DNA of 64,000 nucleotides from positions 11,057 to 75,056 of the forward strand of contig JAXHNJ010000003.1 in NCBI GenBank assembly GCA_034520665.1, read 5' to 3'. Source of the stretch: Patescibacteria group bacterium (GTDB lineage: Bacteria > Patescibacteriota > Patescibacteriia > JAXHNJ01). Shown piece after piece: positions 1,495 to 11,331 of this stretch (position 1 is the stretch's first letter; the number at the start of each line of letters is the position of its first letter). A program made the position numbers and the translations under genes. Below the pieces are notes generated by a model. It was not told the DNA's origin and ran no database searches. It was given only the letters and a program-made list of their open reading frames with translations.

Positions 1495-2195
1495 TGGCCC
1501 GACTTGGCCGTGATATTGGCCGGCAGAGTGCCTTCAAAGTAAGAATAGCCATCAAAATATTTTAAGTCTTTAATAGCCAAGTTAGGAATTTCAGCTAAGC
1601 GGTTATTAATAGTTTTTTCCAGCCATGCTTCAGCTTTTTCCAAATAACCTTCGGGCACTGGAATTAAGCCAATTTTCCCTTTTTTTATTTTTAACTCAAT
1701 TGTCTGATCATCCTTTCTTTCCACTAAAACCCGAGTCCAGACCGGCACCTTAAGAGGTTTATTTAAAAAAGCAGATAACTCAAGACCACCTTCAATCATT
1801 TTTACCTGTAAAGAACGGCCCGGGTGATCTTCTGGAAAAGAATACTGAAGCAGTGAAGTAATTTCCTCCTGAGTCGGCTGCAAACTCAAAGAAACCTGAT
1901 CCTTATATTCTTTCTGGCTAAAAGGATGACTATTAGCCTCGAGATTTATTTTTAGCCCGGTTTTTTGTAAAAAGTTTTGCCTTATTTCCTGGCTGGAATT
2001 TACTTTAAGATCCTTAGCCTGGGCGGTTGAAAAAATATGAGAAAGACCCGGTATTTTGTATAAACCGGTCAGACCGATTAAAACTAATGGTATTAAAATA
2101 ATGATCAGACCGAAAACCAGCCAAAGCCATTTTTTTGACTTTTGCTTTTTTTCCGGTTTAATTGGATTAATATCTGACTTATTCTCTAGTCTCAT
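1479..2195 (-). CDS. hypothetical membrane-anchored protein
   Basis: 238 aa. Lys-rich N-terminus followed by one TM helix (WLWLVFGLIIILIPLVLIGL); the rest is predicted soluble with no recognisable family. Confidence 0.45.
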   Translation of the reverse strand: MRLENKSDINPIKPEKKQKSKKWLWLVFGLIIILIPLVLIGLTGLYKIPGLSHIFSTAQAKDLKVNSSQEIRQNFLQKTGLKINLEANSHPFSQKEYKDQVSLSLQPTQEEITSLLQYSFPEDHPGRSLQVKMIEGGLELSAFLNKPLKVPVWTRVLVERKDDQTIELKIKKGKIGLIPVPEGYLEKAEAWLEKTINNRLAEIPNLAIKDLKYFDGYSYFEGTLPANITAKSGQWLDI

Positions 2196-2571
2196 TTTTT
2201 TTATTTATTTGTTTATCAATAGTGCCAATCAGCTCATGAGGACTGGTTTTAGCTTTGACAAAATACCCGGAAGCCCCCAAAGCCAAGGCTCTTTTTATAG
2301 ATTCTTTATCTTCAATATTAGTCAGCATAATAATAGGTATGTTTTTGGTTTTGTCTTCTTTTTTGACAAATTGCAAAAAATCAAAGCCGTTAATTTTCGG
2401 AATTCGAATATCCAACAAAACTAAATCAGGAAAATTTTGTTTAATTTTTTTTAAACCCTCTTCGCCGTCAGAAGCTGAGCTAGTTTTGAAGTTAGCTTCT
2501 TGTAATATTTTTTTTAAAGCAAAGACCTCGGTGGGTTCGTCTTCAATAATTAATATTTTTTTATCAGCCAT
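2179..2571 (-). CDS. response regulator, receiver domain only (CheY-like)
   Basis: 130 aa. KILIIEDEP...DLVLLDIRIPKINGFDFL... receiver pattern with phospho-acceptor Asp and the Lys near the C-terminus; no output domain. Confidence 0.8.
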   Translation of the reverse strand: MADKKILIIEDEPTEVFALKKILQEANFKTSSASDGEEGLKKIKQNFPDLVLLDIRIPKINGFDFLQFVKKEDKTKNIPIIMLTNIEDKESIKRALALGASGYFVKAKTSPHELIGTIDKQINKKNETRE

Positions 2572-2941
2572 TTTTTATAACCTTTTTTATTTTATTAATA
2601 AAATCATCCAAATTAAATTCAGTCTTTATTAGATAATCTTTAGCCCCCAGCTTAAGTCCTTTTTCAATATCACCTTTTTTGCTTAAATTAGACATAATCA
2701 CCACCGGAATATCTCTATATTTATCATTTTCCTTAATTTCCTTTAAAAAATCATAACCACTCATTTGGGGAAGAATAATATCCAAGACGATTAAATCAGG
2801 CTCATCTTTCTCCAGAGCCTCTAAAGCTTTTTCTCCGGAATCAACTGTGGTAATTGAATACCCATCAACGGTTAGACGAGCCTTAAGAGCGTAGAGTAAA
2901 GCCGCTTCATCCTCGATTATTAATATTTTTTTTGATTTCAT
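2564..2941 (-). CDS. response regulator, receiver domain only (CheY-like)
   Basis: 125 aa. KILIIEDEAALLYAL...DLIVLDIILPQMSGYDFL; second stand-alone receiver, overlapping the downstream receiver gene by 8 nt. Confidence 0.8.
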   Translation of the reverse strand: MKSKKILIIEDEAALLYALKARLTVDGYSITTVDSGEKALEALEKDEPDLIVLDIILPQMSGYDFLKEIKENDKYRDIPVVIMSNLSKKGDIEKGLKLGAKDYLIKTEFNLDDFINKIKKVIKNG

Positions 2942-2958
2942 AATTTTAGATTTAATAT

Positions 2959-4032
2959 TTATGATAATGGTAAATTAAAATAAAAGGTAGTACCGACTCC
3001 TTTTTTGGAAGCCACGCCAATATTGCCCCCATGGGCTTCAACAATGCCTTTGACAATAACCAAACCTAAACCAGATCCTTTTTCCTTTTTTTGGGAAACA
3101 TTTTTCATCTGCTCAAACTTATTAAAAAGTTTTGATAAATTCTTAAAAGAAATACCCTGGCCATTATCAGTTACAGAAATAACTAGTGACTGGTCGTAAT
3201 TATCAAGCTTATTGTCACCACCTTTAAGATACCACTCAATCTGATTTTTCTCCGCTTCCTGGTTTAGGTCATGCTTTTTTTTATGTAAAAAAGCGCCGAT
3301 TTCTATACGCCCCTCTTTTTTGGTAAATTTAATAGCATTGGACAATAGATTCTCAAAAACCTGGCGCATTTTTTTCTTATCAATTGGTATTTGAGGTAAA
3401 TTTTCTGACTTTTTAAACTTGATTGATATATTTTTATTTCCGGCCACGGGTTTAAAATACTTAATAACATCTTCGATCAAATAGGAAATATCAGATACCT
3501 CTTTTTCTGCTTTAAACATGCCAGACTCAATTTTTGAAACATCCAGTAAGTCATTAACAATATCAAGCATCCTCTGACTGCTTTGATTTACCAGCTTGAC
3601 TGGTTCTTCAAAGTGGCGAACCTTATCTTTTTTAATATCATCAATCATTAAATTAGAAACCATGCGTAAACCGTTTAAAGGTGACCGCAGGTCATGAACC
3701 ATCATATTTATGAATTCTGTCCTTTGTTTTTCGGCCTTTTTCAACTTCTCCAAAGTATTTTTTAGTTTAGTGTTTATATTTTGCAGATTTTTTTTAGAAT
3801 CAGCCACTTTAACCGTGCCCTGATGGACAAAATAAGAAATAATAAACATAACCATAGCTATAAAAACTGTCATCAAAAAAACAATTTCTTCTGAATAATA
3901 ATTACGGGCAATAAAAAAAGTGGTCAAAATAAGCAGTATGGTGATAAAGCCGGCAAAAATAAACAAAGAAGAAGGACATTCGAAAAAACCAAGTTTAAGG
4001 TCTTTGCATTCTTTAAATGATTTAATTTTCAT
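2959..4032 (-). CDS. sensor histidine kinase (HisKA plus HATPase_c)
   Basis: 357 aa. Two N-terminal TM helices, H-box MVHDLRSPLNGL, then N/G boxes (DNGQGISFKNLSKLFNKFEQ, GSGLGLVIVKGIVEAHGG). Confidence 0.85.
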   Translation of the reverse strand: MKIKSFKECKDLKLGFFECPSSLFIFAGFITILLILTTFFIARNYYSEEIVFLMTVFIAMVMFIISYFVHQGTVKVADSKKNLQNINTKLKNTLEKLKKAEKQRTEFINMMVHDLRSPLNGLRMVSNLMIDDIKKDKVRHFEEPVKLVNQSSQRMLDIVNDLLDVSKIESGMFKAEKEVSDISYLIEDVIKYFKPVAGNKNISIKFKKSENLPQIPIDKKKMRQVFENLLSNAIKFTKKEGRIEIGAFLHKKKHDLNQEAEKNQIEWYLKGGDNKLDNYDQSLVISVTDNGQGISFKNLSKLFNKFEQMKNVSQKKEKGSGLGLVIVKGIVEAHGGNIGVASKKGVGTTFYFNLPLS

Positions 4033-4035
4033 ATA

Positions 4036-4338
4036 TTAATCAGTTAACAAGCCCCAAATAAAGGCGTAGATTAAACTATAAAATAAGAGAGAGTAAAATA
4101 TTCTTTGAGCTTTTGTTTTTGTTTTTATTATAGCATAGCTCTCCTTTTTTTCCTCTTTCCCTCCGATTATTTTTATAATATAAATAAGGCCGTAAACAAA
4201 AGTAACACCAGAGGCTATTTTAAAACATAGATTATAAGGTAATTGTCCGGCCAGACCATAAAGGACTAAAGAAAGCAGAAAAGTTAAAACAAATATTAGA
4301 AGTAAACTTAAGATCAATTTTTTTAATCTTAAAACCAT
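4036..4338 (-). CDS. small integral membrane protein
   Basis: 100 aa, three predicted TM helices; no family recognised. Confidence 0.35.
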   Translation of the reverse strand: MVLRLKKLILSLLLIFVLTFLLSLVLYGLAGQLPYNLCFKIASGVTFVYGLIYIIKIIGGKEEKKESYAIIKTKTKAQRIFYSLLFYSLIYAFIWGLLTD

Positions 4339-4343
4339 AAAGT

Positions 4344-5996
4344 TTACATTTTAACCACTTGACCCGGATTAAGGCTGTGATAATTTTTATTTTGGGATCT
4401 GGTTGATTTTTTATTTTCTTTGCTTGAATAATTTTTATTATCTTGGTGTGAAGATTTTCTCTGCTTAGCTTTTCTCCGCTTGCTTTGTTTAAAGGAAGTG
4501 GGCTCTTTACCTAAAGCTTCTTTCAATGATATTGCCTTTTTATTATCAATACTAGCTTGGGGCACAATTTTTTCTTTGCGAAAATCTACTTTAGGTTTAT
4601 TATCTTTTTTGTTATATCTTCTGTTTTTATTATAATTTTTATTATAATTTCGGTTTGTCTGATTATTGCTTTGGCTTTTTTGGGCTTCTGATTTGGCTCC
4701 GGTCCAGCGAGAAATTTTATCTTCAATTATTTCCCTTTTTTCTGAATATCTTTCCCGGGAAGTACGAATTATTTTTTCGCGGTTACCTTCCTCTTCTGTT
4801 ACTGGTGGCAAAGTAGAGGCAGAAAAAGGATCAGAAGCCACACCGTCAATCATTAGTTTTAAATAAACCTCATACTTAGTTAAATTAACTAAATCAGTCT
4901 CCGAAAAAATAGGCTCAAATTCCTTGACTAAAAATTCCGCGTCAGCAGCCCCCACCCGGAAAGCCACAATAGTGCCGACATTACCAAAAACAGCCGCCTG
5001 AACCTTTTCATCCAGCTGTTCAATATACTGATGAGCAATGGTTAAATCCAGCCGGTATTTTCTGGCCTCAGATAAAATAGTAGCAAAACTCTCGGTAGCA
5101 AAGTTCTGAAATTCATCAACATAAAGGTAAAAATCTTTTCTTTCTTCCTCAGGAACATCAATCCGACTCATAGCGGCCAGCTGAATTTTCGTCACCATCA
5201 TAGCTCCCAGTAATGAAGAATTATCCTCGCCCACTCGTCCCTTGGAAAGATTCAAAAGTAAGATTTTACCCTCATCCATAATTTCACGCATATCAATGGT
5301 GCTTTTGGGCTGGCCTACAATATTCCTGATGACCGAGCTGGATAAAAACTGCCCGACCTTATTTTGAATAGGAGAAATAGCTTCGGTACGAAACTGATTA
5401 GAATAGGCTTGATATTCATTCTTCCAAAAGGCCTTGACCACTGGATCAGTGATTTTATCCACCACTTTTTTGCGATAATTTTTATCCACCAGCAAACGAG
5501 TAACACCAAGAAGAGTGCTGCCTGGATATTCAAGCAAAGATAAAATAGTATTACGCAATAAGTATTCCAAACGCGGTCCCCAGGAATCAATCCATATTTT
5601 CTTGAAAACAGCAATTAAGCCAGAAGTAACTAAATGATGATAGGTCGGATCAACAGATTCCAAAACATTAAAAGCAATGGGATAATCTAAATCAGCCGGA
5701 TTAAAATAAACCACGTCATTAATACGATGAGAAGGAATAAACTGAATAACTCTTTCTACTAAATCACCCAGCGGATCTATTAGAGCCACTCCTTTGCCTC
5801 TATGAATATCATCTACAATCATATTTTCAATAGTGGTAGATTTTCCCATGCCGGTTTTACCAATAATATACATATGACGACGACGATCATCACTTTTAAT
5901 ACCAAACTTCCGGTTTATATTCCGAAAATTGGTCATAGCAAAAGGAGTAATCTCATTCTCCTGATTATTATTATTTTGACTATTATTGGTTGCCAT
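4344..5996 (-). CDS. FtsK/HerA/VirD4-superfamily P-loop ATPase (type IV coupling protein-like), no membrane domain, N/K-rich C-terminal tail
   Basis: 550 aa. Walker A IIGKTGMGKSTT followed by ALIDPLGDL (DPKGD/DPHGEY-like). Walker B FYLYVDEFQNF, then RKYRLDLTIAHQ...FGNVGT, typical of the TrwB/VirD4/HerA clade. The last ~130 aa are low complexity (N, K, Q, S, R). Confidence 0.6.
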   Translation of the reverse strand: MATNNSQNNNNQENEITPFAMTNFRNINRKFGIKSDDRRRHMYIIGKTGMGKSTTIENMIVDDIHRGKGVALIDPLGDLVERVIQFIPSHRINDVVYFNPADLDYPIAFNVLESVDPTYHHLVTSGLIAVFKKIWIDSWGPRLEYLLRNTILSLLEYPGSTLLGVTRLLVDKNYRKKVVDKITDPVVKAFWKNEYQAYSNQFRTEAISPIQNKVGQFLSSSVIRNIVGQPKSTIDMREIMDEGKILLLNLSKGRVGEDNSSLLGAMMVTKIQLAAMSRIDVPEEERKDFYLYVDEFQNFATESFATILSEARKYRLDLTIAHQYIEQLDEKVQAAVFGNVGTIVAFRVGAADAEFLVKEFEPIFSETDLVNLTKYEVYLKLMIDGVASDPFSASTLPPVTEEEGNREKIIRTSRERYSEKREIIEDKISRWTGAKSEAQKSQSNNQTNRNYNKNYNKNRRYNKKDNKPKVDFRKEKIVPQASIDNKKAISLKEALGKEPTSFKQSKRRKAKQRKSSHQDNKNYSSKENKKSTRSQNKNYHSLNPGQVVKM

Positions 5997-6002
5997 AAAA
6001 AT

Positions 6003-7454
6003 CTATTTAGTAAAGGGTAAGTTATTGGGCGCCACCGGTGGTTGGCCGTCCTGAGGTTGGTTTTCTTTTGTCTTGTTACTAGGACCCACTGTTTGAGGAG
6101 ATTTTTTGGGTTCGGGAGAAAAGACCTGCTGAGGCAAAGACACCGGCGGTTCACCTTTTCGAGCCTCTGTCTTTTTAACCAGCGGCGCCTTGACTGTAGA
6201 AATTGGAAAGTGAAATAAACTGGCTAACTCTTCGATATTTAAAACAAACATATTGCGGCCTCGAACACCACTCCGGTATTTATAGCCCCAAAGCAGCCTC
6301 CTTTTACGGTTATTAATTCTCCACTGAGTAATAGCTTCAATAGGCGGATAAGTTACTTTGGTTTTGGTTTTTTTGTCCCGCTTAAGACCATTTAAATCTA
6401 AGGTGTTATACTGCTTCATAGCCCCGAGGACAGCCGGGATTATTCTTTTATGGCTAAAAACTTCTTTTTCAGCAAAATAAACTACCCGTATTTTAGTGCG
6501 GAAAGCAATTTTAGATATTTTAATGCCAATAGCCTCAACTACTGCTTTTTCTGAAGGAGTTAAGTGCTGCATCATAGTCGGCCATTTCAAGCCTTCGTTT
6601 TGACTAGCCCTTTCACCAAATTCAGAAGGAGGTATTATTGAAGCAGTCAGTGATTCACTAAACCCTTTAACAAAATCACGCGGCAACCAAAATAAATCAT
6701 TACTTTTAGAGGAACTTTTAGCTCCAATCAATTTCTTGATTAAATTAATACCATTATCACGCCATTTATTGCCTTCGGGAGGAGCAATAACAAACTGCAG
6801 CCAAAGCTGTTCTCCCTGCATTAAACGGCTTAAAATTTCCAATAAAGAACCCATCGGATCTTTAAAATATTCTTTGGCCGCCGGATCTTCAAAATCACGA
6901 TAAGTTTTAATCGGATAAACTTCTTTTTTGTCTAATTTCATTTCAGCTCCATAAATATCATATTGGTCATTGGGAAATTCAACTTTAATATCTTCTGTAT
7001 AGTCCTGAACTTCCGTAATTTCAGCGTCCGGATACTGAGCGTAAATGGCTGACTCTACCATATCACGAAATTGATTGGGAGTTCTGATCAAAAATTGGAT
7101 ATATCCGCCCATACTAATTATTTCCAAAGCAAAAGCCTGCTGGTTATAGCCATGCAGCCAGCGGTCTATTTTGCTGCCTTTTTTTTGTATGCCATGAAGA
7201 TGAGAAAAAATATTTTCCACGGCCTTGGGTGTCTGTTCATTTTCTTTGGGTATATCAATAGCTAAAAGAGTAAATTCTATTTTTGAATTGTAAATATTTT
7301 TACGCCACTGAATCCAGGTCCACCAAAGTCCAAACAAAATTGCCCCTAAAATAATTACCCAACCACCATGAATAATAATATACCAAAGCATAGCTAAAGG
7401 AGCAAAATAAGAGTTACTATTTATGGGAGTAGTTAAATCAATGCTAATTTCCAT
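6003..7454 (-). CDS. membrane protein partner of the upstream ATPase (two N-terminal TM helices plus ~400 aa soluble domain)
   Basis: 483 aa. TM helices at roughly aa 18-60, Pro/Gln-rich C-terminus. Separated by 7 nt from the ATPase gene, so probably co-operonic; may supply the missing membrane anchor. Confidence 0.45.
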   Translation of the reverse strand: MEISIDLTTPINSNSYFAPLAMLWYIIIHGGWVIILGAILFGLWWTWIQWRKNIYNSKIEFTLLAIDIPKENEQTPKAVENIFSHLHGIQKKGSKIDRWLHGYNQQAFALEIISMGGYIQFLIRTPNQFRDMVESAIYAQYPDAEITEVQDYTEDIKVEFPNDQYDIYGAEMKLDKKEVYPIKTYRDFEDPAAKEYFKDPMGSLLEILSRLMQGEQLWLQFVIAPPEGNKWRDNGINLIKKLIGAKSSSKSNDLFWLPRDFVKGFSESLTASIIPPSEFGERASQNEGLKWPTMMQHLTPSEKAVVEAIGIKISKIAFRTKIRVVYFAEKEVFSHKRIIPAVLGAMKQYNTLDLNGLKRDKKTKTKVTYPPIEAITQWRINNRKRRLLWGYKYRSGVRGRNMFVLNIEELASLFHFPISTVKAPLVKKTEARKGEPPVSLPQQVFSPEPKKSPQTVGPSNKTKENQPQDGQPPVAPNNLPFTK

Positions 7455-7460
7455 ATTTGG

Positions 7461-8600
7461 TTATTTTTGTTTCAAATCTTGATCTTTTTCAATTAAAGTA
7501 TAGGTTTTATCAGGATTTTTATTAAATTTTTTAGAGTCGGATAAAGCCAGTAAAATAGTATTCTTTTTAACCATTCTTCTTTTTAAAACCCTCGCCACAA
7601 TTTCATCCCGTTTTAATGGTTGGTCAGAATTTTTTAAAACATCTTCAATAACATCAGACACCACACCAGACTGATAACCCCATTCTTTTAAAGCATAAAT
7701 ACCGCGGCCAACCAAAACATATTCGTCATTTAAAATTAATTCATTATGAACTGTTGGCGGATAGGCTTTTTTTCGGTCAAATCCGGCCTTGTTTATCAGC
7801 TCAGCAATTTTAGTAAAATGTAAGGGCTTTTCCTGTTTTTTTAAAATAATATGAATTTTATCATTTATTCTTTTTGGATTTATACTGCCCCAACTAGATA
7901 ACCCAAAATCACCATAAGGATTCATATCAATTTTTTTACTAATCCTTAAATAAGAAATTATAGCTTCATCTGATAAAACCTCATTTTCTGATTCATAGAA
8001 TTCAGTTTTTTTAAACTTTTTTATCACTTTGTCCTGGGAAATAGGCTTACCTTCTACTTTAAGGATTTCTAAAAAATTTTCTATAGATTTATCAAGAAGC
8101 TTTCGGCTGGCTGATTCTAGCTGCCATGAATCTCTTAACTTTTTATCACTAAGTGTTTCATACTTATAATCAAAAATACTCTTCATAAGAAATTTTACAG
8201 CGTTATCATTGACTTTATTATCCCCAGCATGAGATAAAAGTTTTTCATTAAAAAAATTCTTTTCCATAATACTGCCATGTTCGTGGATGAGATGAGTAAT
8301 TATACCTTCTACTTCATTAATTAAATCTTTAAATTGTGAGGATTTCTTAATTTTTTTCACTGAAGAGTTTTCAATTTGTCGAATTCTTTCCCGAGTAACG
8401 TTAAAATGATTACCAATTTCTTCCAAAGTTTCTTCTTTGTCACCGCTTAAGCCATATCGGCGCCTTAAAATATCCTCTTCTTTACTGGAAACTAACTTCA
8501 GAAGTGAAGAAACTATTTCTAGCGGATTAAAATGACTGATATCTGAAGCTTGTTTCGAGCTGAGGATCTTGTCTAAAAGACTTGAATCTTGCTCATTCAT
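7461..8600 (-). CDS. sigma-70 region 4 (N-terminal) fused to C-terminal HARE-HTH domain protein
   Basis: 379 aa. aa 40-90 EEDILRRRYGLSGDKEETLEEIGNHFNVTRERIRQIE is a textbook sigma70_r4 HTH. aa 270-330 KPLHFTKIAELINKAG...YPPTVHNELILNDEYVLVGRGIYALKEWGY matches the HARE-HTH of RNAP delta subunit. No region 2 or 3. Confidence 0.6.
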   Translation of the reverse strand: MNEQDSSLLDKILSSKQASDISHFNPLEIVSSLLKLVSSKEEDILRRRYGLSGDKEETLEEIGNHFNVTRERIRQIENSSVKKIKKSSQFKDLINEVEGIITHLIHEHGSIMEKNFFNEKLLSHAGDNKVNDNAVKFLMKSIFDYKYETLSDKKLRDSWQLESASRKLLDKSIENFLEILKVEGKPISQDKVIKKFKKTEFYESENEVLSDEAIISYLRISKKIDMNPYGDFGLSSWGSINPKRINDKIHIILKKQEKPLHFTKIAELINKAGFDRKKAYPPTVHNELILNDEYVLVGRGIYALKEWGYQSGVVSDVIEDVLKNSDQPLKRDEIVARVLKRRMVKKNTILLALSDSKKFNKNPDKTYTLIEKDQDLKQK

Positions 8601-8777
8601 ATTTTTAAATTTAATATTTATAATTAGAGATTTTAGAGAGATAAACCTCTCTTTTAAAACATAAAAATTAATTTATATCTCATCTTTAGTATAGCATACT
8701 TTTTTAATGTTGTCAAGAATATGTTATAAAATAAAAATCGCCTTAAAAGCGAGTATTTTATTAAATTTAAATAATTT

Positions 8778-9671
8778 TTAGTTTTTCCGGTGATACCAGA
8801 CCGAAAGTAAAGGTGAAGCTATAAAAATAGAAGAATAGGTGCCAATAATAACCCCAATAATTAAGGCTAATATAAAAAAACGAATACTTTCACCACCAAA
8901 TAATAGTAGAGCCAATAAAACAAGTAAGGTAGTTATAGAAGTATTAAGAGAGCGAACTATGGTCTGATTGATGCTTTTGTTTAAAATTTCATCAAAGTCT
9001 TCACTCTCACCCTTAGTCAACCCTTCCCTAACCCGGTCAAAAACTACAATCGTGTCATGTACTGAAAAACCAAGTATAGTTAACAAAGCTGTAACAAAGA
9101 ATATATCCACTTCAATATTAAAGAAAAAGCCCAAAGCAGCAAAAACACCCAGAGTAATTAATATATCATGGATCAAGGCAATAATAGCATTAAAGCCAAA
9201 TACCGGGCTATTGATATGCGAAAATTTAATTTTTCTAAAAGCCCAAGAAATATAAATAATTATACCGACTAAGACCAAGGCAATAGCTACAAACGCTTTT
9301 TGTTTTAATTCCTGTCCAATTGTCGGGCCAATAGATTCAAAGCTTTCCTCAGTCACAGGTCCGAATTTTTCTTCTAACGAAGTTATAATATTATTTCTTT
9401 CTTGATTACTTAGTGTTTTTAGGCGTAAAAGTATACTTTCTTGGCCAGATTTTTGAACTTTTATTTCTCCCAGTTCTAATTGATTTAAATTTTCACGTAT
9501 CTCATTTGTTTCTGGAATTTCATTTTTAAAATTAATCTGCATCAAAGTGCCGCCAGTAAAATCAATACCCAGTTTAAGCCCTCCCGTAAAAATAAAAAAC
9601 AAACTAATTAAAATAAGCAAACCAGAAAATATAAACCAAATTTTTTTCTTTTCAATAATTTTATACATCAT
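8778..9671 (-). CDS. secF: protein translocase subunit SecF
   Basis: 297 aa. LKLGIDFTGGTLMQINF start, six TM helices, directly downstream of secD and overlapping it by 11 nt. Confidence 0.9.
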   Translation of the reverse strand: MMYKIIEKKKIWFIFSGLLILISLFFIFTGGLKLGIDFTGGTLMQINFKNEIPETNEIRENLNQLELGEIKVQKSGQESILLRLKTLSNQERNNIITSLEEKFGPVTEESFESIGPTIGQELKQKAFVAIALVLVGIIIYISWAFRKIKFSHINSPVFGFNAIIALIHDILITLGVFAALGFFFNIEVDIFFVTALLTILGFSVHDTIVVFDRVREGLTKGESEDFDEILNKSINQTIVRSLNTSITTLLVLLALLLFGGESIRFFILALIIGVIIGTYSSIFIASPLLSVWYHRKN

Positions 9672-11331
9672 CTTTTTTTACTCCTTTTACTCCTAAAAAT
9701 GAGGGGTGTTTTTCTAAAAAATTACCGGCTATTAATCTTAAAAAGGTACGCGTAACAATAATAGCCGAAAACATAGAAATTAATATACCCACACCCAAGG
9801 TTATAGCAAAACCTTTTATTAGACTGGTGCCAAACCAGGCTAAAATAACACAGGTAATAATTGATGAAAAGTTAGAATCACGAATAGAGAGCCAGGCTCT
9901 TTTAAAGCCTTCCTCAATAGCCATATTTAAAGGTTTATCGCTCTCTAACTCTTCTTTAATCCTTTCAAAAATCAAAACATTCGCATCAACCGCCATCCCA
10001 ATGGATAATATAAAACCAGCCACCCCGGCTAAAGTCAATGTGATTGACCAAAGTTTAAAAATCGCGACTACTAAAAGCGTATAAATAGCTAAAGCAAAAA
10101 CTGAAATCAAACCAGGCAGACGATAATAAATAATCATAAATAGAGCTAAAAAAGCTAAACCAAGCAAGGCGGCAAAGAAACTTTTCTGAACCGAAATTTT
10201 ACCCAAAGAAGCCCCTATATTCTGCTGGCTAATTAAAGTAATGGGCACTGGCAAAGCCCCCGAATTTAAACGTTGGGCTAATTCCTTAGCCTCGGTCACA
10301 CTAAATTCACCGGTAATAACAGCTTTACCATCAGGTATTTTTTCATTAACCCGAGGCATGGATATAGGAGAACCGTCGAGATAAATACCGACTATATTCC
10401 CGATATTTTCCTCTGTTATCTGAGCAAACAATTCTTTGCCTTCATCATTAAATTCTAAAGCTACCTGAGCTTCTCCGGTTTGGTTATTAAACTGCAAATA
10501 AGCTTTTTCTAATTGCTGGCCGGAAAGTCCGGTATTTATCAGGCCCTGATTGGTTTGATAATCAGCTTCTGATTTCTTTTTTATAAGTATATGAGAAGCC
10601 TTAACCTCTTTATTTTCACCTTCTCCTTTTTCTTCCGTCTTTAAAATGATATGGTAGCCAAAATCAGTCTCTACTAATTCCGGATAAACCTGGCCTATTT
10701 TGGCCTTTTCAAAAATAGCTTGTTCAAAAGCCGGTACCATTTCTCCTTTTTTGAAAAAGCCTAAATCCCCTCCCTGTTCCTGACTACCTGGATCTTCACT
10801 TTTTTCCTTGGCCAGAGTAGAAAAATTTTCAGGGGTGGCCTGGTCTAATATTTCTTGAGCTTTATTTTTGGCTTCCTCATTATACTCTTCAATTTTTTGC
10901 TTTTGTTCTGGAGTTAATTCAACCGGCGGCGGTTGTTTTTTAAATTCAAGCAAAGGTGTTTTACCGATCATTTCCACGGCTTGATTAACCTCTGTTACTC
11001 CAGGTAACTCCACAATAACCCGCCAGTCATCTCCGGATTTATTAGTTTGAACAACTGGCTCAGAAACCCCAAAAGTATTAACTCTTCTCTCAATAACATC
11101 ACGGACCCCTTCTAAGGCGCTAGCTTTTTCAGCTTCTTCTATTTTAGAGGTATCGGCCTGATAGACTAAATGAGTCCCTCCCTGTAGATCAAGACCTAAA
11201 TGAATTTTTAATTCCTTAAAATAAGAGCCAATTTTTATATCTGGCCCGGCCGGATAATCAACTATACCCGCTAAAACAGCTAGTATAATTATACCGATAA
11301 ATGTCAGCCAAATTTTCTTTCTAATATTCAT
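9661..11331 (-). CDS. secD: protein translocase subunit SecD with parvulin (PpiC-type PPIase) insertion in the periplasmic domain
   Basis: 556 aa. LGLDLQGGTHLVYQAD SecD signature and C-terminal six-TM bundle. Inserted between LLEFKK and the P1 head is GGDLGFFKKGEMVPAFEQAIFEKAKIGQVYPELVETDFGYHIILK (parvulin core) followed by VKASHILIKKK (normally the first strand of a parvulin). Confidence 0.88.
   Translation of the reverse strand: MNIRKKIWLTFIGIIILAVLAGIVDYPAGPDIKIGSYFKELKIHLGLDLQGGTHLVYQADTSKIEEAEKASALEGVRDVIERRVNTFGVSEPVVQTNKSGDDWRVIVELPGVTEVNQAVEMIGKTPLLEFKKQPPPVELTPEQKQKIEEYNEEAKNKAQEILDQATPENFSTLAKEKSEDPGSQEQGGDLGFFKKGEMVPAFEQAIFEKAKIGQVYPELVETDFGYHIILKTEEKGEGENKEVKASHILIKKKSEADYQTNQGLINTGLSGQQLEKAYLQFNNQTGEAQVALEFNDEGKELFAQITEENIGNIVGIYLDGSPISMPRVNEKIPDGKAVITGEFSVTEAKELAQRLNSGALPVPITLISQQNIGASLGKISVQKSFFAALLGLAFLALFMIIYYRLPGLISVFALAIYTLLVVAIFKLWSITLTLAGVAGFILSIGMAVDANVLIFERIKEELESDKPLNMAIEEGFKRAWLSIRDSNFSSIITCVILAWFGTSLIKGFAITLGVGILISMFSAIIVTRTFLRLIAGNFLEKHPSFLGVKGVKKDDV

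Follow-up and report, generated by a model that had tools for sequence, protein, structure and literature searches.

The window analysed here is a 64,000-nucleotide stretch from a Patescibacteria group bacterium (GenBank assembly GCA_034520665.1, contig JAXHNJ010000003.1, positions 11,057 to 75,056 of the forward strand). This study concerns one gene within it, which encodes a protein that joins region 4 of a sigma-70 factor (sigma-4) to four winged-helix domains and which may act at promoters without being a sigma factor. Patescibacteria are thought to account for much of bacterial diversity; their genomes are tiny and seemingly encode few recognizable regulators. On the minus strand, the gene order is SecA, a YkuD/FG-GAP protein, a Gmad2 protein, SecD, SecF, the sigma-4/winged-helix protein, a 483-amino-acid (aa) membrane protein, and a 550-aa VirD4/TraD-like ATPase, followed by a 100-aa membrane protein, a histidine kinase, two receiver-only response regulators, and CysS. 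The sigma-4/winged-helix gene appears to form a single transcription unit, served by a separate promoter, with the genes for the 483-aa membrane protein and the ATPase (Table 1).

Table 1. Sequence features of the sigma-4/winged-helix gene and its operon. Positions are those of the window; residues are those of the sigma-4/winged-helix protein. pI, isoelectric point; AF2, AlphaFold2 model.
Feature	Position	Strand	Remarks
Sigma-4 plus four winged helices, gene	7461..8600	minus	Open reading frame (ORF), 379 aa
Two family-conserved helices, residues 1-35	8496..8600	minus	SILDK motif; L9 and F24 invariant; helices 8-22 and 26-34 (AF2)
Sigma-70 region 4 (4.1 + 4.2), residues 36-88	8337..8495	minus	PF04545; recognition helix VTRERIRQIE
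Winged helix 1, residues 89-163	8112..8336	minus	AF2 H-S-H-H-S-S; acidic/neutral, pI 6.0; column identity 0.51
Winged helix 2, residues 164-238	7887..8111	minus	AF2; acidic, mean pI 5.1; hhalign relation to winged helix 4
HARE-HTH 1, residues 245-309	7674..7868	minus	PF05066; basic, pI 9.4; column identity 0.84
HARE-HTH 2, residues 310-372	7485..7673	minus	Basic, pI 9.7; Pfam match alone weak (E 0.03)
Extended -10 promoter	8688..8716	minus	TTGACA 8716-8711, 14 nt, TG 8696-8695, C, TATACT 8693-8688
Terminator-like hairpin and T-run	8728..8752	minus	Right after SecF stop; hairpin 8752-8738; sets SecDF apart from the operon
Second operon gene, 483-aa membrane protein, DUF8128 family	6003..7454	minus	6 nt past the stop of the sigma-4/winged-helix gene
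Third operon gene, soluble VirD4/TraD-like coupling ATPase, 550 aa	4344..5996	minus	TrwB_AAD_bind, DUF87, and TraG-D_C above cut-off

Domain architecture

The protein was compared with the Pfam and NCBIfam profile collections. Sigma70_r4 (PF04545) matched residues 36 to 86 with an E value of 7.7e-12 and a score of 45 bits, against a cut-off of 24.1, and HARE-HTH (PF05066) matched with an E value of 9.1e-7 and 29.6 bits, against a cut-off of 25.9. No match to Sigma70_r2 or Sigma70_r3 was found with Pfam or NCBIfam. RpoD models of NCBIfam aligned to residues 3 to 93 with E values of about 1e-17; the sigma models as a group covered only residues 3 to 98, with scores far under their cut-offs (for example, 64.5 versus 555). 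Since regions 2 and 3 are absent, the protein is not a sigma factor. Neither is it the delta subunit of RNA polymerase (RNAP), as the NCBIfam model of the low-GC delta subunit (TIGR04567) aligned to residues 248 to 307 at a score below its equivalog cut-off (E value, 5e-6; 26.5 bits versus 42), the acidic tail is absent, and the HARE-HTH domains are basic. No homology to any anti-sigma family was detected in Pfam or NCBIfam.

The sigma-4 module is closest to that of the primary sigma factors RpoD/SigA. Residues 30 to 93 are 50 to 60% identical to region 4 of sigma A and share its fold; the top sequence match of the module in the PDB was region 4 of Thermotoga sigmaA (1TTY; E value, 2.8e-13), with FNVTRERIRQIE identical, and a Foldseek search of the PDB with the N terminus of the protein retrieved sigma-4 structures, namely, 1rio_H (template-modelling [TM] score, 0.89), 1ku3, and WhiB-sigma-4 chimeras. 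The recognition helix VTRERIRQIE is the same as that of primary sigmas and is invariant in the family, and in an alignment of 43 relatives T69, R70, E71, R72, R74, Q75, and E77 did not vary. By a mapping of our own, based on the sequence of Escherichia coli sigma-70 and the structure of Thermus aquaticus sigma-4 on -35 DNA, R70, E71, R74, and Q75 correspond to the -35 base contacts of E. coli sigma-70 (R584, E585, R588, and Q589), and R48, T58, L59, and E60 correspond to its backbone contacts (R562, T572, L573, and E574). All eight mapped columns were invariant in the 43 relatives. A role of sigma-4 in protein binding only would not need these invariant DNA-reading residues. Unlike a primary sigma, the protein has no regions 1.2, 2, or 3, and its region 4 stands at the N terminus with four winged helices behind it; moreover, the hosts of the family also have a complete sigma. 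The two helices that precede sigma-4 (residues 1 to 35) were considered as a possible remnant of sigma region 3.2, as suggested by alignments that reach residue 3. This was not supported by a profile of residues 3 to 36 alone, which gave negative scores against four sigma sequences and showed no likeness to region 3.2 or to the linker.

An AlphaFold2 model of the protein built on the 43 relatives (mean predicted local distance difference test [pLDDT] score, 90; predicted TM score, 0.73) was helical through sigma-4 up to residue 86 and continued into four units of winged-helix topology, the approximate limits of which are given in Table 1. In distant relatives, Pfam recognizes two HARE-HTH stretches at 38 to 52 bits (E values of 1e-10 to 1e-13) that span profile positions 5 to 71 of 71, which identifies units 3 and 4 as HARE-HTH domains. 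Unit 2 is related to these but diverged: when the units were compared with hhalign, units 2 and 4 gave a probability of 95.6% (E value, 1e-8) and units 2 and 3 one of 78.6%, with the remaining pairs weaker. Unit 1 had no Pfam match and is a winged helix by its predicted fold only.

Charge and conservation divide the protein in the same way. Sigma-4 and units 3 and 4 are basic (mean pI of 9.8 for sigma-4; column identities of 0.75, 0.84, and 0.70, respectively), and units 1 and 2 are acidic to neutral (mean pI, 6.0 and 5.1) and variable (column identity, 0.51). The first HARE-HTH domain is the most conserved part of the protein, with the motif AYPPTVHNELILN...VGRGIYAL.EWGY. The two C-terminal domains carry net charges of +3 and +5, and the protein ends 7 residues past the fourth winged helix. 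A separate AlphaFold2 model of residues 240 to 372 (pLDDT score, 94) retrieved Staphylococcus aureus RNAP delta in Foldseek (8x6g_E; probability, 1.00; TM score, 0.63) among generic winged-helix matches; by sequence, the HARE-HTH pair found nothing significant in the PDB, whether searched as a single sequence or as a profile. The array part of the full model matched tandem winged-helix proteins of the PDB, such as UFL1/DDRGK1, SelB WH2-4, Dcc1, and RPC62. The resemblance to Firmicute delta (RpoE) thus lies in the HARE-HTH domain. Firmicute delta has one such domain and a long acidic disordered tail, whereas the protein described here has two basic HARE-HTH domains, no tail, and in addition sigma-4. 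In 2012, Aravind and Iyer reportedly described proteins of bacteria in which HARE-HTH occurs together with features of both RNAP alpha and sigma, so that this class of architecture had probably been noticed by then. The present protein may differ from that class, as it has no alpha-CTD-like (C-terminal) domain and its residues 89 to 238 are predicted to fold as winged helices.

The initial annotation of this gene, made from the letters of the window and their translations, had described a sigma-70 region 4 helix-turn-helix (HTH) without regions 2 or 3, together with a HARE-HTH domain, in a protein that is not a sigma factor. All three statements are borne out: both profiles scored above their cut-offs, regions 2 and 3 are missing, and the structure prediction returned sigma-4 followed by four winged helices. 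Other details required correction. The HARE-HTH motif quoted in that annotation, PLHF...TVHNEL...VGRGIYALKEW, was placed in the C-terminal 60 aa or so, although it occupies residues 259 to 307, and the second HARE-HTH domain, at residues 310 to 372, was overlooked, as was the total of four winged helices. Also, the gene had been placed downstream of a "VirD4/HerA-like ATPase pair." All genes here are read from the minus strand, and so this one comes first in the operon, upstream of those neighbors; the supposed pair consists of a DUF8128 membrane protein and one soluble VirD4-like ATPase.

Distribution, essentiality, and association with complete sigma factors

An NCBI entry from a Patescibacteria metagenome-assembled genome (MAG), P0001, which is named "sigma factor-like helix-turn-helix DNA-binding protein," matches the window protein with 100% identity, and some members of the family have been named "RNA polymerase delta subunit" by the Joint Genome Institute. 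There are more than 4500 full-length relatives, and thousands, of 345 to 400 aa, carry both PF04545 and PF05066 and align with 96 to 99% coverage; at 50% identity, 582 clusters were found with E values of 1e-30 or less. Named sources include Kerfeldbacteria, Yanofskybacteria, Buchananbacteria, Andersenbacteria, Parcubacteria, and Saccharimonadales, and a member from Saccharimonadales is 36% identical to the window protein over residues 49 to 371 (E value, 7e-64). A conserved-peptide scan of IMG/VR found no phage-borne homologs. Assignment to an antiphage defense island was considered and rejected, as PADLOC returned nothing beyond a sigma-4 match of a generic kind to MzaA and matches of the ATPase to mad8 and HerA, and the genes are core and syntenic. 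One MAG (isolate SO_2017_LW4_136) contains two copies of the family, 46% (L017, 1903-3018) and 48% (L024, 8001-9104) identical to the window protein; these are either a true paralog pair or the product of a mixed bin. The domain architecture is already public, both as annotation and in a supplementary table of a 2023 paper (PMC10633639). Literature searches found no paper that discusses the family, and the five-module anatomy, the invariance of the -35 reader, the conserved promoter, the split-coupling operon, the lineage with sigma fusion or adjacency, and the contrast in essentiality described below do not appear in the literature that was searched.

"Candidatus Southlakia epibionticum" ML1 encodes a 349-aa protein, SEML1_0294, listed as "RpoS," with PF04545 at residues 27 to 72 and PF05066 at residues 225 to 283 (Tables S1/S2 of PMC10633639). 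By these tables, it resembles the window protein in its pair of Pfam domains, which lie at corresponding positions, in its length, and in the coupling protein encoded beside it, and it is probably an ortholog. It was parsed there as one helical and three winged domains, the third of which was assigned to ECOD e7f75L1, and its family was flagged as core and Patescibacteria enriched (PMC10633639); we confirmed that chain 7F75_L, to which this counterpart of HARE-HTH 1 was thus assigned, is Bacillus subtilis delta. In transposon insertion sequencing (Tn-seq), SEML1_0294 was scored as essential (ES/ES/ES) at the three time points, with 24 insertions in the input and 1 to 2 recovered (PMC10633639). 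SEML1_0293, the coupling protein encoded just downstream, was nonessential (NE/NE/NE), with 82 insertions in the input and 87 to 120 recovered (PMC10633639). Since the downstream gene is nonessential, polarity does not explain the essentiality of SEML1_0294. The gene is listed in the tables and is undiscussed in the text of the paper (PMC10633639).

The same tables bear on two other explanations of the protein. A split housekeeping sigma, with region 4 supplied in trans, is ruled out, because the essential RpoD of Southlakia has regions 1.2, 2, 3, and 4 (PMC10633639) and the sigma of another family-bearing locus (L079) has its own region 4. A stand-in for a missing alpha-CTD is likewise ruled out, as the Southlakia RpoA carries PF03118 (PMC10633639).

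In one lineage, members of the family are fused to, or encoded beside, a complete sigma factor. P0198 (800 aa) is a complete sigma (regions 2, 3, and 4) fused to a family member. It was seen on five contigs, and the three that were examined (L084, 8001-10403; L085; L086) come from separate samples; it is identical on several independent contigs, and it adjoins ParB with no ATPase nearby. The recognition helix of the second sigma-4 of P0198 is altered to VTRQRIQQIK. In a related lineage (L087, 1052-4198), ParB and a complete sigma are followed by a family member with an extra C-terminal DnaA domain IV (P0259). In a Saccharimonadales genome, topoisomerase I is followed by the family member, with no adjacent coupling ATPase.

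These associations bear on the idea of a two-subunit sigma, in which the protein would read the -35 element and a partner would supply region 2. There is precedent in SigO/RsoA of B. subtilis, a two-subunit sigma in which a protein with region 4 and without region 2 needs a region-2-only partner; like the window protein, this sigma includes a chain with region 4 and no region 2, which acts in transcription initiation, but SigO lacks a winged-helix array, and the system is not known to be homologous to the window protein beyond sigma-4. Although this pattern of regions and the lineage with an adjacent or fused sigma gene would suit such a division, a search confined to about 8 kb around the gene in 86 loci and to the window turned up no ORF with region 2 only, and the sigmas that are adjacent or fused (P0198 and L087) are complete, their own region 4 included. 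We therefore regard a two-subunit sigma as highly improbable.

The operon and its neighbors

The promoter of the operon matches the consensus at 11 of 12 positions and has in addition the extended -10 element; under a strict pattern, it occurs once in the window. Of 80 species-level loci, 64 carry the pattern cTTGACA-N14-TGCTATAyT upstream of the homolog, and 1.13 Mb of sequence holds 29 other matches, about 20 of which sit before the homolog of the YkuD/FG-GAP gene. The 80 loci, 42 to 63% identical to the window protein, came from a pattern-limited scan and represent a relatively narrow clade. Such conservation fits strong constitutive expression. Intergenic conservation this strong is unusual, and the element could also be a site through which the protein, by its sigma-4, regulates its own gene. 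Between the promoter and the gene, the predicted 5' untranslated region contains a hairpin with a perfect 6-bp stem (AGAGAG-GTTTAT-CTCTCT; 8635-8652, minus strand) about 35 nt before the ATG, and there is no obvious Shine-Dalgarno sequence directly before the start codon.

These features would be expected of an ordinary sequence-specific regulator that controls its own promoter, the DUF8128 and ATPase genes, and perhaps a small regulon and that uses its domains for DNA binding only. The gene is the first of a tight operon, with gaps of 6 nt and 6 nt between it, the DUF8128 gene, and the ATPase gene (relatives' medians, about 15 and 3 nt), its own promoter contains a perfect TTGACA, the expected target of sigma-4, and the synteny is deep. 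However, the Southlakia member is essential and the cotranscribed ATPase is dispensable, some members have no ATPase neighbor, and the near invariance of two recognition helices across the phylum, at about 33% overall identity, would be unusual for a local regulator. On balance, we consider such a regulator unlikely.

Of the 80 loci, 70 extend far enough to be judged for the ATPase gene, and in all of them it follows on the same strand; in 66 of these 70, DUF8128 comes between it and the homolog of the sigma-4/winged-helix gene, and SecF lies upstream in 66 of 74. The order SecD, SecF, family member, DUF8128, ATPase was also found with members that are only 33 to 34% identical (L081 and L083) and in a Yanofskybacteria genome (L088). 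In Saccharimonadia (L090, 4518-8038; Southlakia SEML1_0294-0296), the family gene is just downstream of topoisomerase I and not of SecDF, and because of this the SecDF adjacency elsewhere suggests inherited gene order and not a functional link.

The 483-aa protein is 28% identical (E value, 5e-55) to a protein with PF26449 (DUF8128) and had no Pfam match in our local copy; it has a single hydrophobic stretch at about residues 17 to 48 and no Walker A motif. The 550-aa ATPase has Walker A (GKTGMGKS) at residue 46 and no hydrophobic 19-mers, so it has no transmembrane segment of its own, and the DUF8128 protein encoded upstream may provide its membrane anchor. In Southlakia, SEML1_0293 is a single 921-aa protein in which the ATPase domains begin at about residues 361 to 402 (PMC10633639). 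To judge from its length, it would be a fusion of DUF8128 and the ATPase, whereas the window has the two as separate chains, and the window pair would be a split type IV coupling protein. This candidate split coupling protein is core in Patescibacteria and lies far from any virB4. Homologs of the ATPase (L079, 9206-10960; L081; L083) end in a zinc finger, zf_Tbcl_2 (for example, CDVCG...CKTC in L079); the window ATPase ends instead in a long, cysteine-free, Lys/Asn-rich low-complexity tail (4344-4700).

The gene order raises another explanation, in which the protein is a DNA-handling adaptor for the DUF8128 protein and the VirD4-like translocase that would bind particular DNA and hand it to the ATPase, in the manner of relaxosome accessory proteins or the winged-helix gamma domain of FtsK. 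The presence of several DNA-binding domains in one protein is compatible with this, as is the invariable coupling ATPase downstream, retained also in the 33 to 34% identical members. A census counted 5,713 VirD4-like proteins in Patescibacteria, almost all distant from virB4 and with an unknown role; the authors allowed that these might have been "exapted for other functions" and did not describe their gene neighbors (PMC12102498). An adaptor would nevertheless be hard to reconcile with the mismatch in essentiality between the Southlakia member and its coupling protein and with the Saccharimonadales and sigma-linked members that have no adjacent ATPase; moreover, a sigma-derived -35 reader is not known in such adaptors. 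We hold this explanation to be quite improbable.

The genes at 2179-4338 (minus strand), namely, the histidine kinase, the two receiver-only response regulators without an output domain, and the 100-aa membrane protein, are conserved only in the three closest relatives (L001 to L003) and so probably lie outside the conserved unit. On the other side, SecD (9661-11331, minus strand; also L083, 5163-6896) has a parvulin-type peptidyl-prolyl isomerase (Rotamase) inserted at residues 144 to 233, so that this SecD carries, in effect, a PrsA-like foldase of its own.

Proposed role in transcription initiation

Our favored but tentative proposal, to which we assign a probability of about 0.45, is that the protein is a widespread non-sigma transcription factor of Patescibacteria, probably general rather than operon specific; it would be essential and would associate with promoters or with RNAP. 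In favor of this are the domain architecture, the invariant -35-reading residues, the fusion or adjacency to complete sigmas, the essentiality of the Southlakia member in contrast to its neighbor, and the conserved promoter. The initial annotation had suggested that the protein could bind -35 elements and/or RNAP, acting as an anti-sigma-like or delta-like regulator. The predicted binding is compatible with the invariant recognition helix, the link to complete sigmas, and the essentiality of the Southlakia member; the likeness to delta holds at the level of the HARE-HTH fold and not for the delta profile, the tail, or the charge.

In the proposed mechanism, the gene would be read from a separate consensus extended -10 promoter, at the head of the three-gene operon that also encodes the candidate split type IV coupling protein. 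The sigma-4 of the protein, a copy of that of a primary sigma, would act as in sigma A: its HTH would read hexamers of the TTGACA type (-35-like), and the module may also bind the beta-flap of RNAP. The basic, nearly invariant HARE-HTH pair would hold adjacent duplex DNA or else contact the beta' surface that is used by the HARE-HTH domain of Firmicute delta, and the acidic, variable winged helices 1 and 2 may serve as a spacer or as a protein-contact arm. Because regions 2 and 3 are missing, the protein could not melt DNA or recruit core polymerase, and therefore it would modulate initiation by the sigma A holoenzyme. Modulation of this kind at many promoters would explain the essentiality of the Southlakia member. 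The DNA target, the RNAP contact, and the effect on transcription are all inferred. In its proposed role, the protein would be comparable to CarD and RbpA, which are essential, phylum-restricted, non-sigma factors that bind RNAP at many promoters; the likeness would be one of role only, as their folds and RNAP contact sites are unrelated to those of the window protein.

Several observations weigh against this proposal. Patescibacterial sigma and alpha are complete, region 4 and the alpha-CTD included, so it is not evident where on RNAP a second sigma-4 would fit; if both sat on the same polymerase, the sigma-4 of the protein would compete with region 4 of sigma A. An operon-specific regulator of an essential gene would be essential too. 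SEML1_0294 was assigned to the family through tables (length, Pfam domains and their positions, and the adjacent coupling protein) and not through its sequence, so that the argument from essentiality depends on a probable orthology. The deep synteny with DUF8128 and the ATPase, in 70 of 70 loci and in the most divergent members, argues for a functional tie that the proposed role leaves unexplained. Finally, Foldseek returned no match to the HARE-HTH pair at an E value of 1e-3 or less, the matches obtained being generic winged-helix ones.

The competition between the two sigma-4 modules could itself be the function. The protein might then be, in line with the anti-sigma-like regulator of the initial annotation, a decoy that occupies the -35 element or the beta-flap, as a global brake on initiation or as a postinitiation or recycling factor that is loosely delta-like. 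Its sigma-4 is intact and closest to that of a primary sigma, the host sigma retains a region 4 with which to compete, and the HARE-HTH domains are related to delta. On the other hand, the delta-type acidic tail is absent, and the covalent fusion with a complete sigma in P0198 is hard to square with a pure antagonist. We judge a decoy to be improbable. A bolder form of the proposed role, which we see as distinctly unlikely, is that the RNAP of Patescibacteria has an obligatory extra initiation factor unique to the phylum, in which a sigma-4 in trans and a delta-like HARE-HTH pair would act at most promoters, either to read a second promoter element or to hold upstream DNA. Under this bolder form, the ancient operon link to a split VirD4-like ATPase might reflect a physical coupling of transcription to a membrane translocase of DNA or other substrates.

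The architecture itself is no discovery. What the family offers is a testable lead into how Patescibacteria organize transcription, as it joins the -35-reading part of a sigma to a fold that Firmicute delta uses on RNAP. Saccharibacteria can be transformed and are open to Tn-seq (PMC10633639), so the question can be addressed by experiment. The conserved operon also offers a starting point for work on the thousands of "orphan" VirD4-like coupling proteins known from Patescibacteria (PMC12102498). Should the protein prove to be a general initiation factor, Patescibacteria would have a basic transcription apparatus unlike the textbook one, which would matter for promoter prediction and for the design of expression tools in these bacteria.

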